From Escherichia coli (GTDB taxonomy: Bacteria; Pseudomonadota; Gammaproteobacteria; Enterobacterales; Enterobacteriaceae): a stretch of DNA of 64,000 bases. The position numbers and the translations under genes were made by a program. The DNA lies in NCBI RefSeq assembly GCF_045037415.1, contig NZ_CP173438.1; one strand, given 5' to 3'. Positions within the stretch are counted from its first letter, which is position 1, and every line of letters starts with the position of its first letter. Of this stretch, positions 43,584-50,038 are shown piece after piece. The notes below the pieces were generated by a model. That model was not told the origin of the DNA. It saw only the letters and a list, made by a program, of their open reading frames with translations, and made no database searches.

Positions 43584-43702
43584 AACGCCTCCTGACGCAA
43601 CAACTTACCCGCACAAAATAGAATTGTGCTGTACAAACGTCCAGTTTGAAAGAAGTTTCCTGCGAGGCGCTACGCAAAACGATCGTTAATTTTCATTATT
43701 TT

Positions 43703-43768
43703 ATCCCATAATATGAGATGAAGTTTATATTGTGGGATATATCACCTTTTCCCCACGTCATTATGTGG
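43703..43768. promoter_or_regulatory. Candidate operator palindromes upstream of the IclR-family gene
   Basis: ATCCCATAATAT-N12-ATATTGTGGGAT inverted repeat (43703-43738) and CCACGTCATTATGTGG (43753-43768). Confidence 0.3.
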
Positions 43769-43799
43769 AACACTTCAGCAATATCATCAGGAGAAACGT

Positions 43800-44567
43800 A
43801 TGGCAGAAACCTCTTCAACCACCGCAGGCGCACAAACGTTATTACGTGGACTGGCGGTTCTTAATGCTGTTTATAACGGCTGCCATGACCTAAAAAGTAT
43901 CGGCGAGTTCACCGGCACGACCCGGAGCACAACCCATCGTTTAGTCACCGTTCTGGTGGAACAACGCTACCTGCGCCATGTCCCAACGCAGGGCTACCAA
44001 CTGGGTGCCAAACTGATCGAATTCGGTGCCAGAGCACTGGAAAGCACCTCGCTGTACGAAATTGCCCAGCCCGTTTTGCAACGCCTTGCCCGTTACACCC
44101 TGGACACCGTGCATCTGGGGATCGTTGAAGGCGACGAAGTGCTGTATCTGGAGAAGATCAACAGTCAGCGCGGGCTGGAAATGCGCTCACGCCCAGGCCA
44201 TCGCATGCCACTGGCAATCACCGGCATCGGCAAGGCATTGATCCTCAACCGAACAGAAGAAGAGTGGCGCACGCTGTTTAAGACCTGTGGTGATGAAACA
44301 AAACTGGGCGCATTTATTCAGAACATGCGTCGTTATGCCGCCAGTGGTTTTGCTTTTGATCTGGAAGAGAACGAGCCGACTATCCGTTGCGTTGCAGCGC
44401 CGGTTTACAACGCCCGGGATGAAATTGTGGCGGCTATTTCTGTCGCCAGTACCACCACGTATATGTCGCTGGCGCGTCTGGAAGAACTGGCACCTTACGT
44501 CAAATCCTGTGCAGAAGAGATATCCGCTGAACTGGGCTGGGGTAAGCACGTCCGCAAAGATAAATAA
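43800..44567 (+). CDS. IclR-family transcriptional regulator
   Basis: 255 aa with N-terminal wHTH and C-terminal IclR effector domain; RBS AGGAGA upstream. Confidence 0.8.
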   Translation: MAETSSTTAGAQTLLRGLAVLNAVYNGCHDLKSIGEFTGTTRSTTHRLVTVLVEQRYLRHVPTQGYQLGAKLIEFGARALESTSLYEIAQPVLQRLARYTLDTVHLGIVEGDEVLYLEKINSQRGLEMRSRPGHRMPLAITGIGKALILNRTEEEWRTLFKTCGDETKLGAFIQNMRRYAASGFAFDLEENEPTIRCVAAPVYNARDEIVAAISVASTTTYMSLARLEELAPYVKSCAEEISAELGWGKHVRKDK

Positions 44568-44590
44568 ACCATGATTAAAGGAAACGACTA

Positions 44591-45595
44591 ATGCCGGGAG
44601 CACCCTCATTTATTGCCCTGGACTGGGGAACGTCATCGCTTCGGGCATGGCGTTTTGGCGAATCACCAAATCCACAAGAAAAACGTGAATTCCCCTGGGG
44701 GATCATGAAATTACCCTCCCAGGCAGCAACACGTGAGGACGCTTTCCACGATACGTTTTTACGTGTCTGCGGCGACTGGCTGGCACAAACCCCATGCCCG
44801 GTACTGGCTTGCGGCATGCTCGGCAGTGCGCAAGGGTGGCAACCAGCAGCTTATTTACCTTGCCCGGTCACTCTCGAGGGTCTGGCGAAGCAGTTGACGC
44901 CTGTTATCCACCAGCAGCAGACAATGCTGCACATCATTCCTGGCGTGATTAAAGAAGGTGAAATGCCCGAAGTGATGCGTGGCGAAGAGACACAAATCTT
45001 CGGTGCTATCTCGATGGAACCGTCCCTGCAAAATGCGATCCATCAGGGTATGCCAGTGCTGATAGGCTTACCCGGCACACATGCGAAATGGGCAGTAGTT
45101 GAAAACAACACCATTACCGATTTCCGAACCTTTATGACGGGCGAGTTATTTGATGTTTTATCCCGCCATTCGATTCTCGGTGCCACCATGCATCCTGGAG
45201 ATGAACTGCACTGGGATGCCTTCACCCACGGGCTGACAGCAGCACAAGAGCATCATCAGACCGGATTATTATCGACGCTGTTTTCGACCCGTTCGCGCCT
45301 GCTGACCAGTAATCTTACGTCGTCCTCGCAGGGGGATTACCTTTCCGGATTACTGATAGGCCATGAATTATGTGGTCTGGCATCCAGTTTGCTACGTGAT
45401 TTACCCGCCACAACACCGATCGCCTTAATCGGTAGCGCAAATCTGAACAGCCGCTATTCACAAGCATTCAGCCACGTTTTTCCCGACAGACAGATACACG
45501 CCATTCCTAATGCCACTGAACAGGGATTATGGCGAATCGCCCACGCTGCCGGGTTACTGTCCACCAACGCCAGGGAATGTACCCATGCCATTTAA
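44591..45595 (+). CDS. 2-dehydro-3-deoxygalactonokinase-like sugar-acid kinase (DgoK family)
   Basis: 334 aa; IALDWGTSSLRAW, VMRGEETQ, PGTHAKW, DFRTFMTGEL and LSGLLIG motifs shared with E. coli DgoK as I recall it. Confidence 0.7.
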   Translation: MPGAPSFIALDWGTSSLRAWRFGESPNPQEKREFPWGIMKLPSQAATREDAFHDTFLRVCGDWLAQTPCPVLACGMLGSAQGWQPAAYLPCPVTLEGLAKQLTPVIHQQQTMLHIIPGVIKEGEMPEVMRGEETQIFGAISMEPSLQNAIHQGMPVLIGLPGTHAKWAVVENNTITDFRTFMTGELFDVLSRHSILGATMHPGDELHWDAFTHGLTAAQEHHQTGLLSTLFSTRSRLLTSNLTSSSQGDYLSGLLIGHELCGLASSLLRDLPATTPIALIGSANLNSRYSQAFSHVFPDRQIHAIPNATEQGLWRIAHAAGLLSTNARECTHAI

Positions 45596-47736: not shown

Positions 47737-47748
47737 CAGGGGCCAGCA

Positions 47749-49239
47749 ATGTTTGAAAGTGAACTTTTAACTCAGGGTTTTTCGACATTACTCAATAATC
47801 CTCAGGCGCTGCTGTTTGCCACTTTTGGGGTGATGCTGGGTATTGTGATTGGCGCTCTGCCTGGTCTGACAGCGACCATGGGTGTGGCGATTTTGCTGCC
47901 TTTCACCTACGGCATGGAGCCTGTTTCTGGCTTGTTGATGATTTGCGGCGTCTTTTTTGGCGGCGTCTATGGCGGTTCTATCACCGCAATTTTGCTCAAA
48001 ATTCCCGGTACGCCTGCCGCCGCAGCCACCGCCATTGACGGATATGAGCTGACGAAGCAGGGAAAAGCAGGGCTGGCATTGAGTGCCGCCACGTTCTCTT
48101 CCTTTAGTGGCGGAACGCTCAGCATTATCGTGCTGATGTTTCTCTCTCCGGTACTTGCCAGTTGGGCGCTGAAATTTAGTGCCTCGGAGTCCTTCGCCCT
48201 GGCAACCTTCGGACTGAGCATTATTGCCAGTATTTCCGGTGAGTCGCTGATTAAGGGGCTGATTGCCGGGGTTGGCGGATTGCTGATCGCAACGATAGGC
48301 CTTGATCCAATGGGCGGTTTTCCACGGTTTACAGGTGGATTTGTGGAGCTGATGAATGTGCCATTTATCCCGGTGATGATTGGTTTATTTGCTGCTTCAG
48401 AAGCATTCCGCTCTATGGAGCAAAACCAGCAAATTCGTCAGGGGGCGAAGGTGGCTATCGGCAGTCTGTTACTGCCCTGGCAAACACTACGCCGCATCGC
48501 ATTAACCATTTTGCGCTCATCAGGATTAGGGGTTTTTATCGGCATGATCCCCGGTGCGGGGGCGGATATTGCAGCTTTTGTTGCCTATAACGAAACTCGT
48601 CGTTTCAGTAAGACACCAGAAAACTTTGGTAAGGGTGAAATTAAAGCTGTGGCCTCCTGTGAGGCAGGCGCGAATGGCTGCACCGGTGGCGCATTGTTAC
48701 CTATGCTGACGCTGGGGATCCCTGGCGATGCGGTAACCGCCATCATGCTGGGCGCGTTAACGTTACAGGGAATGCAACCAGGCCCGCTGATGTTTACCGA
48801 CCACGGCGATATGGTTTATACACTGTTTGTCGGCATGATCTTCTGTTACTTCATGCTACTAGTTCTTGGACTGCTCTCTTTGAAAGTCATCGGTAATGTG
48901 GTGAAAATTCCCGGCAATATTCTCACACCGATGATCCTCGCACTTTGTGTGGTCGGGACTTATGCGTTGAACAATAGCCTTTTTGATGTTGGCATTATGC
49001 TGATTGCAGGCGTGGTGGGCTATTTCATGCAGAAAGGAGGATATCCGGCATCACCCGTAGTGCTGGCATTGATTATGGGGCCAATGGCGGAAAGTAATTT
49101 TCGCCGTGCGCTGTCGCTTTCTGGTGGGTCACTCGACTTTCTGTATACCCGACCGATCACTCTGGCATTGCTGACTCTGGCAGCCTTTACGCTACTGACG
49201 CCAATAATCCGCAAAATAATGCGTTTACGGCGTCAATAA
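47749..49239 (+). CDS. Tripartite tricarboxylate transporter large permease (TctA family)
   Basis: 496 aa polytopic membrane protein with TctA-type duplicated domains. Confidence 0.85.
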   Translation: MFESELLTQGFSTLLNNPQALLFATFGVMLGIVIGALPGLTATMGVAILLPFTYGMEPVSGLLMICGVFFGGVYGGSITAILLKIPGTPAAAATAIDGYELTKQGKAGLALSAATFSSFSGGTLSIIVLMFLSPVLASWALKFSASESFALATFGLSIIASISGESLIKGLIAGVGGLLIATIGLDPMGGFPRFTGGFVELMNVPFIPVMIGLFAASEAFRSMEQNQQIRQGAKVAIGSLLLPWQTLRRIALTILRSSGLGVFIGMIPGAGADIAAFVAYNETRRFSKTPENFGKGEIKAVASCEAGANGCTGGALLPMLTLGIPGDAVTAIMLGALTLQGMQPGPLMFTDHGDMVYTLFVGMIFCYFMLLVLGLLSLKVIGNVVKIPGNILTPMILALCVVGTYALNNSLFDVGIMLIAGVVGYFMQKGGYPASPVVLALIMGPMAESNFRRALSLSGGSLDFLYTRPITLALLTLAAFTLLTPIIRKIMRLRRQ

Positions 49240-49245
49240 CTGATA

Positions 49246-49275
49246 TCGCTCCCCGAAGTTGGGGAGCGTTTTTTT
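49246..49275 (+). terminator. Intrinsic terminator after the TctA-like gene, overlapping the udp stop codon
   Basis: Hairpin cgctccccgaagttggggagcg followed by TTTTTTT. Confidence 0.6.
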
Positions 49276-50038
49276 ATTTCAGCAGACGACGCGCCGCTTC
49301 CACCACGATTTTCACCGCATGGCTTTCGGTTTGTTTCATCGTCTCAGCATTCGGGATCTCTTGCTGGGTGCGGTTAACGATAACCCCCGCTACCATACCG
49401 GCACGCAGGCCCTGACTTGCACACATGGTCAGCAGGGTTGCAGATTCCATTTCATAGTTCATTACGCCCATCGCCTGCCACTCTTCCATAGAACCTTTAA
49501 AGTGACGAACTACGCGACCAGAGTAAGTATCGTAACGTTCCTGACCTGGGTAGAAGGTATCAGAAGAAGCTGTCACGCCAACGTGAGTCGTCGCGCCAAT
49601 GGATTTCGCAGCTTCAACCAGCGCAGTCGTACATTCGAAATCAGCGACAGCCGGGAATTCCAGCGGTGCGAAGTGCAGGCTCGCGCCATCCAGACGAACA
49701 GACGCCGTGGTAACCAGGACATCACCCACATTAATATGCGGCTGAATAGCGCCCGTTGTACCGATACGCAGGAAGGTGCGAATGCCCAGCTGTGCCAGCT
49801 CTTCAACAGCAATAGAGGTAGACGGGCCGCCGATACCGGTAGAGCAGACGATAACAGGTTTACCATCCAGCTCTGCACGCCAGGTGGTGAATTCGCGGTG
49901 AGATGCCAGCTTAACCGGCTTATCCATCAGCGCGGCGATCTTTTCCACACGATCCGGGTCGCCAGGGACGATGGCAAGCGTAGCCCCTTGTAAATCGTTT
50001 TTAGTGAGGCCGAGATGAAAAACATCAGACTTGGACAT
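49274..50038 (-). CDS. udp: Uridine phosphorylase
   Basis: About 254 aa from [31 protein letters not shown]; recognisable E. coli Udp. Confidence 0.94.

Follow-up and report, generated by a model that had tools for sequence, protein, structure and literature searches.

A conserved six-gene operon between rmuC and udp of ST131-like Escherichia coli may import and cleave a ready-made 2-keto-3-deoxy-hexonate

Introduction

What would a bacterium do with a kinase and an aldolase of the galactonate type that come with a transporter of their own, and without a dehydratase? This question is raised by a locus in a 64,000-nucleotide stretch of Escherichia coli DNA (contig NZ_CP173438.1; the whole stretch is called the window below), in which six intact open reading frames (ORFs), all on the plus strand, lie between rmuC and udp and encode an IclR-family regulator, a DGOK-family kinase, a DgoA-type aldolase and the TctC, TctB and TctA subunits of a tripartite tricarboxylate transporter (TTT). 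The window is ST131-like, as a 7 kb query over the locus matches ST131-type chromosomes at 100%. An original prediction, made from the sequence without database searches, had assigned these six gene families and had proposed that the substrate arrives already as a 2-keto-3-deoxy acid; that proposal stays the best reading of the locus, and is strengthened by the lack of a recognisable dehydratase in about 27 related loci. Here, we describe the evidence on which we propose, with middling confidence, that the six genes form a self-contained operon for the import, phosphorylation and cleavage of a ready-made 2-keto-3-deoxy-hexonate, probably 2-keto-3-deoxy-D-galactonate (KDGal).

Results

A galactonate-type kinase and aldolase in a locus without a dehydratase

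Profile searches with each protein bore out the predicted families, and RefSeq annotation already gives family names to all six products. The kinase matches PF05035 (DGOK) over the full length of the model (1-281/281, 7.4e-89), is 35% identical to K-12 DgoK and aligns with PDB entries 3r1x and 3t69 at 1e-37. The aldolase passes the KDPGal aldolase model NF006600 (319.9 bits against a cutoff of 207) and stays below the cutoff of the Eda model TIGR01182 (135.7 against 156); it is 46% identical to K-12 DgoA and matches 2v81, the structure of E. coli DgoA, at 3e-50, as against 1e-15 for 1eua, the structure of E. coli Eda. The original prediction would have fallen had these two proteins been unrelated to the DgoK and DgoA families; both are strong profile matches to them. 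The aldolase ATG sits 11 nt ahead of the kinase stop codon, so the two genes do overlap as had been noticed, and the ORF list and the annotation agree with the earlier statement that the locus encodes neither a dehydratase nor a major facilitator superfamily (MFS) transporter.

At the positions aligned with R14, E37, K126 and V154 of DgoA, the cassette aldolase has R, E, K and V, and these residues are kept in every cassette aldolase. From the DgoA structure, we take the aligned sites to include the Lys that forms the Schiff base, the Glu that serves as general base and the Val, in place of Thr, that goes with galacto stereochemistry. The last of these positions (V154) is Thr in the aldolases that lie beside Firmicutes PfkB kinases. 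The cassette kinase is 45-47% identical to kinases of De Ley-Doudoroff clusters, and in a neighbour-joining tree the enteric cassette kinases adjoin those of galactose/galactonate clusters from Pararobbsia (which has an aldose dehydrogenase, a lactonase and a mutarotase) and Acidovorax (which has DgoD), with the Alpha- and Betaproteobacterial kinases linked to a short-chain dehydrogenase/reductase (SDR) forming the neighbouring clade. This grouping gives indirect support to phosphorylation of KDGal rather than of 2-keto-3-deoxy-gluconate (KDG) or another acid. The full-length DGOK match, the passed KDPGal model, the much stronger match to 2v81 than to Eda, the conserved residues and the tree together mark the two enzymes, by sequence comparison, as being of the KDGal type.

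The matching ST131 genome also carries a complete dgoRKADT operon, with its own GntR-type regulator and MFS transporter. Because the strain retains this operon, the cassette kinase and aldolase are read as distant paralogues of the resident DgoK and DgoA and not as their replacements. A complementary distribution of cassette and dgo genes was considered and rejected for the one genome checked, this ST131 genome, which has both. Of 5426 complete E. coli genomes, 5020 have dgoD, the matching ST131 genome among them, and 406 lack it.

The cassette recurs across genera without a linked dehydratase

We surveyed 79 listed TctC-homologue loci at one genome per species, a sample that supports linkage statistics and in which even E. 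coli is not listed, and compared the ORFs within 10 kb with reference proteins. Eighteen of the listed loci form a close set, with a TctC at least 57% identical to that of E. coli. Among the matches listed for this set, a DgoA-type aldolase lies within 10 kb in 16 of the 18 loci, a DGOK kinase in 15, one conserved SDR in 14, an SMP-30/gluconolactonase-like (SGL) protein in nine, and a DgoD- or IlvD/Edd-type dehydratase in none. MR_MLE and ILVD_EDD are also absent from nine of nine further Pfam-annotated loci, bringing the total to about 27 related loci.

Variants of the cassette differ in the enzymes that surround the transporter. Brevibacillus thermoruber, with a TctC 67% identical to that of E. 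coli, combines IclR-TctCBA with a PfkB kinase (best model, KDG/KDGal kinase), Eda and a GhrB-like reductase, and Lachnospiraceae relatives are linked, among the matches listed, to KduI and Eda. The cassette of Azospirillum has KduI, KdgT and cupin genes in its vicinity, and Spirabiliibacterium pneumoniae has IclR-SDR-TctCBA-DgoK-DgoA as an isolated unit amid housekeeping genes. Judged by gene content, the common theme of the TctC clade is import together with a keto-deoxy-hexonate kinase and an aldolase, without dehydration. Vibrio sonorensis, whose TctC is 41% identical, has the order IclR-TctCBA-DgoD-DgoK-DgoA among the matches listed; evident galactonate systems therefore keep the dehydratase in the operon. 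The original prediction had called the coupling of a TTT to a DgoK/DgoA pair unusual, which does not hold: the cassette is conserved over Alpha-, Beta- and Gammaproteobacteria, and a similar cluster of Salinivirga has been predicted to take up D-galactonate (PMC5507952).

The conserved SDR is 62.5% identical, without gaps, to Sphingomonas A1-R (E = 6.5e-106), and A1-R' matches it equally well, the E-values for the two enzymes spanning 1e-103 to 1e-106. Enzymes of the A1-R type reduce DEH, the monomer of alginate, to KDG (PMC8778563; PMC13390454).

The six-gene form itself is kept in at least five enterobacterial genera. It stands between rmuC and udp in Buttiauxella warmboldiae, Klebsiella spallanzanii, a K. 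indica-like contig and Pseudocitrobacter, and between ubiE and udp in Phytobacter massiliensis, and Brenneria has the six genes at another chromosomal site. A second cassette type is found in Enterobacter hormaechei and Lelliottia, again at another chromosomal site, in the order divergent iron-containing alcohol dehydrogenase (Fe-ADH), very divergent second DGOK gene, IclR-DgoK-DgoA-TctCBA, IclR, a 254-aa gene and a porin. Between Buttiauxella and E. coli, the flanking proteins are 90% (UbiE), 75% (RmuC) and 94% (Udp) identical, and those of the cassette 71% (IclR), 59% (kinase), 67% (aldolase), 83% (TctC), 60% (TctB) and 91% (TctA). An old resident locus, lost by many lineages, fits these comparisons, because the same cassette stands at the same site in several enterobacterial genera; repeated replacement via the conserved flanks is a possible alternative history. 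The earlier suggestion of an ancestral locus lost from K-12 fits the common site in Buttiauxella, Klebsiella, Pseudocitrobacter and Phytobacter; simple vertical retention within E. coli is contradicted by the mosaic allele of E. coli B described below.

TctCBA belongs to a clade with a near-invariant binding loop

TctC matches PF03401 (3.5e-55, residues 52-322), is homologous to solved Bug/TctC structures and begins with a signal-like sequence ending ...VQA/AS; TctB matches PF07331 (1.9e-21), and TctA matches PF01970 over the whole model (1-423/423, 1.2e-151). With a TctC/Bug binding protein and adjacent, co-oriented genes for TctA and TctB, the locus has the architecture of a TTT, and TctCBA is predicted to be a binding-protein-dependent carboxylate uptake system.

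The solved structure closest to TctC is 4x9t from Polaromonas (6e-99), an apo structure whose ligand is given as 'unknown' in a 2018 review (PMC5812351). The second-closest, 25HK (1e-63), is the TTT-C of Vibrio sp. C42, which binds unsaturated alginate oligosaccharides (PMC13390454). Of the 11 ligand residues reported for 25HK, E. coli TctC shares seven, G24, G183 and T225 among them, and has conservative changes at two others (F19 to Tyr, G20 to Ala). The carboxylate-loop sequence of 25HK is entirely different from that of the E. coli TctC clade, in which the loop GNSGTGAIWHL is near-invariant across members linked to DGOK/DgoA, to PfkB/Eda and to KduI/Eda. Positions 191 and 210 differ, with exceptions, between reductase-linked and reductase-free cassettes; position 191 is mostly Asn in the former and Ala in the enteric six-gene form, also with exceptions, which hints at a ligand shift. 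Reading the identity of the ligand from pocket residues was set aside, as the pattern at 191 and 210 is suggestive only.

The regulator and a candidate operator

The IclR protein aligns along its full length with the BhcR, KdgR, PcaR, IclR and AllR models, over an IclR-family range of 1e-41 to 1e-21; BhcR is best (1.2e-41) and KdgR second (1.1e-37), and no equivalog cutoff is reached. Its orthologues carry PF09339 and PF01614, corresponding to an N-terminal winged helix-turn-helix and a C-terminal effector domain.

The palindromes that had been noticed upstream of iclR are real. A 13-nt inverted repeat has arms at 43702-43714 and 43727-43739, which are 12/13 complementary and spaced by 12 nt, and the 5' control region around it aligns with the counterpart regions of five other genera, where the core motifs are conserved. 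Compared over the six genera, the repeat comprises an ATCCC-N7-GGGAT site with a ...TGGGAT half-site downstream of it, and the columns TCCCA...G.GAT are invariant. The repeat is likely the IclR operator, because it overlaps motifs conserved in six genera. A promoter scan found, at its threshold, no sigma-70-like promoter on the plus strand upstream of iclR.

Boundaries, distribution and history in E. coli

The gap between rmuC and udp measures 140 nt in an MG1655 derivative, in agreement with the original prediction that the two lie close together in K-12 without the locus. The window and K-12 are collinear through 43679, the rmuC upstream region included, and diverge from 43680, and the right junction falls within the last codons of udp, near 49276. 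About 5.6 kb (43680-49276) thus stand in place of 45 bp in K-12, which include the K-12 udp terminator hairpin. Of the extent first proposed, the end near 49276 holds, and the start at 43584 marks the end of rmuC, with DNA absent from K-12 beginning only at 43680. Because the right junction lies in the last udp codons, Udp has an extra C-terminal Lys in cassette-bearing E. coli (RLLK*, 254 aa) compared with K-12 (RLL*, 253 aa); the T-tract of the terminator-like hairpin downstream of tctA touches the udp stop codon. The annotation of the locus contains no integrase or insertion sequence (IS), as had been stated for its flanks, and neither a tRNA nor flanking direct repeats were found. The GC content of 0.49-0.56 is similar to that of adjoining DNA, and with this ordinary composition and none of the four hallmarks, a mobile island or element was rejected.

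At 80% or more of its length, the cassette is present in 1452 of 5426 complete E. coli genomes, about a quarter, and absent from 73%; of the 1457 genomes that match it at all, 1452 reach this 80%. The copy is single and chromosomal, but for one plasmid place. Carriers include O25b:H4-ST131, Seattle 1946, UM146, an APEC O2:K1:H4 strain and E. coli B (the B/BL21 lineage), and IAI39, E. fergusonii and one Shigella sonnei are further names among the cluster members. Diversity is low, with 1209 genomes at least 99% identical to the window and a lowest full-length value of 98.5% among the matches listed, and the flanks are 98.7-100% identical to the window in cassette genomes as against 96.3-97.5% in cassette-free ones.

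Comparison of E. coli B with ST131 gives 99.3% identity for the cassette, 100% for iclR and 99.5% for udp, and ubiE, the shared intergenic region, the cassette and udp all fall at 98.4-100%, whereas rmuC is unusually polymorphic and differs at 67 of 1428 positions (95.3% identity). The ubiE-rmuC flank of E. coli B is 98.7% identical to that of K-12. Recombination appears to have had a breakpoint where rmuC meets the cassette, and because the B allele is a mosaic, with a near-identical cassette beside a divergent rmuC, the alignments suggest that the cassette moves between E. coli lineages by homologous recombination through its core flanks.

The codon differences between ST131 and B in tctCBA are 23 synonymous and three non-synonymous, and for this reason we regard purifying selection on the transporter genes as clear from the alignments; in tctA, there are 11 synonymous and no non-synonymous differences, and the TctA proteins are identical. 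An RNA-seq table from enteropathogenic E. coli (EPEC) lists a tctA homologue as differentially expressed (PMC4464170).

Two unusual alleles were seen in passing. Strain KA0011 (NZ_AP029163.1 4963691-4970028) has an IS1 within tctA, the rest of its locus being 100% identical to the window. E. coli HS-02 (NZ_CP172818.1) has a 1.4 kb copy of the cassette 5' end (iclR and part of the kinase gene; positions 5889-7300 of the extracted locus), 81% identical and joined to udp via the K-12-like GACAGGAGAA(A)GAGAAT. The plus strand of the HS-02 copy contains 14% C against 26.5% in the intact copy (about 60% of C lost) and has lost 258 bases, and its flanks align cleanly. We did not use it as a relic of a deletion in the K-12 lineage, as it resembles an assembly artefact or strand-biased hypermutation.

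Coordinates and neighbouring features

Table 1 Features of the rmuC-udp interval, in window coordinates.
Feature	Position	Strand	Details
IclR-family transcription regulator	43800-44567	+	255 aa; RefSeq name, IclR family regulator
DGOK-family 2-keto-3-deoxy-hexonate kinase, DgoK paralogue	44591-45595	+	334 aa; PF05035
DgoA-type class I aldolase (KDPGal aldolase subfamily)	45585-46214	+	209 aa; NF006600
TctC/Bug-family periplasmic substrate-binding protein	46239-47213	+	324 aa; PF03401
TctB small membrane subunit	47230-47736	+	168 aa; PF07331; start per RefSeq
TctA large membrane subunit	47749-49239	+	496 aa; PF01970
5' control region specific to the cassette	43680-43799	+	missing in K-12; holds the candidate IclR operator
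Candidate operator, inverted repeat TATCCCATAATAT / ATATTGTGGGATA	43702-43739	strand-neutral	
Intrinsic terminator-like hairpin CGCTCCCCGAAGTTGGGGAGCG, then T7	49247-49278	+	9 pairs, 7 of them G-C
rmuC, left flank, outside the cassette	42156-43583	-	NF007686, 1064 bits
udp, right flank	49274-50038	-	ends ...RLLK*

A LexA-box-like site, CTGTACAAACGTCCAG (CTG-N10-CAG), is found at 43629-43644, in sequence that K-12 has as well; it precedes the rmuC start by 46 nt and is kept in the aligned rmuC-bearing genera. rmuC (yigN) is a member of the LexA regulon. To the right of ysgA, where K-12 has metE directly, a second accessory block extends from 51366 to 64000. It encodes a cysteine hydrolase, DUF2877, FdrA, DUF1116 and carbamate kinase, continues with an allophanate-hydrolase-related protein, a cytosine permease and a LysR regulator, and then carries MurR/RpiR, transketolase and PtsG-like genes. 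At least the start of this block is also found in E. coli B, and we take the block to resemble the 'tkt1' island of extraintestinal pathogenic E. coli (ExPEC). Elsewhere in the window, yihF (15743-17173) is a RefSeq pseudogene with an internal stop in the matching ST131 genome.

Discussion

In the pathway that we favour, a ready-made 2-keto-3-deoxy-hexonate would be bound by TctC in the periplasm, cross the inner membrane through TctB and TctA, be phosphorylated at C6 by the DGOK-family kinase and then be split by the DgoA-type aldolase into pyruvate and D-glyceraldehyde-3-phosphate (GAP). No dehydration step would be needed, because the imported compound would already be dehydrated. The operon would be repressed by its own IclR regulator, and the imported acid or its phosphate would relieve this repression at 43702-43739. 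The gene families, the operon layout, conservation, distribution, the lack of a recognisable dehydratase and purifying selection on the transporter genes are shown by the analysis; which ligand and effector are involved, and in which direction regulation works, we infer. A substrate separate from that of dgoRKADT is implied, because the same strain retains that operon with its own regulator and transporter. K-12 is said, in work of Cooper from 1978, to take up KDGal only when the KDG permease is derepressed.

Several points weigh against this proposal. The search for dehydratases covered the DgoD, IlvD/Edd and DHDPS families over 7-10 kb per side, which limits how far their absence can be pressed. 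We know of no natural source that would supply the gut with free KDGal in abundance, and we found no ligand in the literature or in solved structures for any member of the TctC clade. Between ST131 and B, the kinase and aldolase genes together show four synonymous and six non-synonymous differences, as relaxed enzymes would. The partner reductases raise a further difficulty: the SDR of 14 of the 18 close loci listed, the Fe-ADH of Enterobacter and Lelliottia and the GhrB-like protein of Brevibacillus suggest that the compound usually imported is an oxidised precursor and not the kinase substrate itself. By our own stereochemical reasoning, reduction of DEH gives KDG, and reduction of DKI, the corresponding monomer from pectin and glycosaminoglycans, gives L-KDGal. 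Because neither reduction yields D-KDGal, a reductase together with galacto-type enzymes fits no single described pathway. An undescribed route, running from a DEH-reductase-like enzyme through the DGOK kinase to the galacto-type aldolase, is a tentative thought that we consider rather unlikely; the E. coli form would then be a cross-feeding scavenger of the reduced intermediate. Such a route would imply one of three things, namely a keto-deoxy or 4-deoxy-hexosulose-uronate isomer outside the known alginate, pectin and galactonate pathways, a gluco-switched DGOK/DgoA pair or an unrecognised epimerisation.

The locus could instead serve high-affinity uptake of D-galactonate, with import by TctCBA, conversion to KDGal by the resident DgoD or another unlinked dehydratase, added capacity from the cassette enzymes and an IclR protein that senses D-galactonate. 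We think this improbable, although the same prediction has been published for the IclR ('GalR'), dgoK and TTT cluster of Salinivirga fredricksonii (PMC5507952), V. sonorensis combines TctCBA with DgoD in one operon, dgoD is available in most E. coli genomes including the matching ST131, and the Pararobbsia galactose cluster likewise has no linked dehydratase. Set against it, some 27 close loci do without a linked dehydratase, and where galactonate is clearly the substrate the operon includes one, and the TctC in that case is only 41% identical. Uptake of D-galactonate would moreover duplicate DgoT, DgoK and DgoA within one cell, would leave the DEH-reductase-like partner unexplained and sits uneasily with the isolated unit of Spirabiliibacterium. 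Alternatively, the system may import the linearised monomer of polyuronates degraded by lyases (DEH from alginate, or DKI), which a reductase then converts to the kinase substrate, the enteric bacteria having lost the linked reductase and using an unlinked one. For this speak the orthologue-level match of the SDR to A1-R and A1-R', the recurrence of three unrelated reductase types among cassette variants, the ligand residues shared with 25HK, the KduI, KdgT and cupin genes near the Azospirillum cassette and the Asn/Ala difference at TctC position 191. The E. coli cassette, however, has no reductase; KDG and L-KDGal are not expected, on our stereochemical reasoning, to be cleaved by a DgoA-like aldolase of the V154 type; the carboxylate loop of 25HK is entirely unlike that of the E. 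coli clade; no lyase genes were seen beside the cassettes, whose flanks are partly annotated; and the split at position 191 has exceptions. We accordingly rate polyuronate-monomer uptake as doubtful too.

Two other explanations fare worse. That the locus is a decaying remnant with no present function in E. coli is very unlikely: its absence from 73% of genomes, the IS1 in tctA of one strain and the excess of non-synonymous over synonymous changes in the kinase and aldolase genes between ST131 and B would agree with decay, but all six frames are intact, nearly all matching genomes (1452 of 1457) hold at least 80% of the cassette, tctA has no non-synonymous difference, iclR is 100% identical between distant lineages and the tctA homologue of an EPEC isolate is listed as differentially expressed. 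The locus is functional, to judge from its intactness in 1452 genomes, the codon pattern of tctCBA and this EPEC listing (PMC4464170). That TctCBA carries citrate or another tricarboxylate and merely adjoins unrelated sugar-acid genes is, to us, scarcely credible. The family name alone speaks for it, the founding TctCBA of Salmonella being a citrate carrier, while TTT substrates are known to be diverse (PMC5812351), Alpha- through Gammaproteobacteria share the order IclR-kinase-aldolase-TctCBA as a conserved unit, and BugD, described as citrate-binding, matches TctC at 8e-48 as against 6e-99 for 4x9t. The enteric six-gene form encodes no reductase, lactonase or dehydratase, and import of a ready-made keto-deoxy-hexonate is the simplest reading of it and the one that we prefer.

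Confirmation of KDGal or a related acid as substrate would give, as far as we know, the first E. coli TTT with a defined substrate, and a second, differently regulated entry to the lower pathway of the galactonate type. To our knowledge, K-12 has no TTT. The main interest lies in the presence of the cassette in ST131, other ExPEC and E. coli B, and in the odd reductase-aldolase pairing of its relatives. Its carriers are the pandemic ST131, other B2 and F strains (ATCC 25922, UM146, APEC O2:K1:H4, IAI39) and the laboratory B lineage; because ST131 and other B2/F strains carry it, the substrate could be a niche nutrient of extraintestinal pathogens, and presence in the B lineage opens the cassette to study in a standard laboratory host. 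If the cross-feeding form of the undescribed route were true, an intermediate released by polysaccharide-degrading gut bacteria would be a private nutrient of ST131 and other ExPEC, and if the substrate were plain D-galactonate, the locus would merely be a redundant high-affinity uptake system. Identifying the ligand would annotate the TctC clade across soil-, plant- and host-associated Proteobacteria and Firmicutes, and would resolve why enzymes of the galacto type keep company with a DEH reductase that does not match them.

In the literature, searched by accessions, ST131, phylogroup B2 and REL606/BL21, we found no experimental characterisation of the E. coli locus or its TctC clade, and the only mention of the locus that we found is the tctA row of the EPEC RNA-seq table (PMC4464170). 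Already known are the RefSeq family names and, from 2017, the prediction of a related gene association: Leyn et al. assigned an IclR ('GalR'), dgoK and TTT cluster of Salinivirga fredricksonii HL-109 to D-galactonate uptake by bioinformatics only (PMC5507952). That cluster has the same three types of component as the cassette, and the galactose dehydrogenase and lactonase are missing; it differs in that the predicted D-galactonate would need a dehydratase, which E. coli-type cassettes never carry, and the two are likened by gene content and not by sequence. The alginate route of A1-R/DehR, KdgK and Eda, with the TTT of Vibrio sp. C42 (PMC13390454), resembles the cassette in that non-enteric cassettes carry an A1-R orthologue and TctC is related to 25HK, whereas the E. 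coli cassette has neither reductase nor lyases, its kinase (DGOK) and aldolase (DgoA) are of other families and its binding loop is unlike that of 25HK.

Closer to home, Salmonella TctCBA has the same three-subunit architecture and Pfam families. The founding system is not linked to catabolic enzymes, and the E. coli TctC has its nearest relatives in an uncharacterised clade; Salmonella tctCBA is also controlled by the two-component system TctDE and not by an IclR regulator. With dgoRKADT, the cassette shares the kinase family PF05035, the aldolase subfamily NF006600 and the overlap of kinase and aldolase genes, and the end products would again be pyruvate and GAP. It differs from that operon in having no DgoD dehydratase and in pairing a TTT with an IclR protein in place of the MFS transporter DgoT and the GntR-type DgoR, and the two enzymes share only 35% (kinase) and 46% (aldolase) identity with their resident counterparts, with both loci in one genome. 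The nearest parallel in logic is the KdgR/KdgT/KdgK/Eda system, in which an IclR-family repressor governs uptake of a preformed keto-deoxy acid and a single kinase and aldolase act on it, again without a dehydratase; KdgR is also the second-best model of the cassette regulator (1e-37). The cassette departs from it in having a DGOK in place of a PfkB kinase, a galacto-type aldolase in place of Eda, a TTT in place of KdgT and a single operon in place of a scattered regulon. If its substrate is KDGal, the cassette would be the galacto-series counterpart of KdgR/KdgT/KdgK/Eda.

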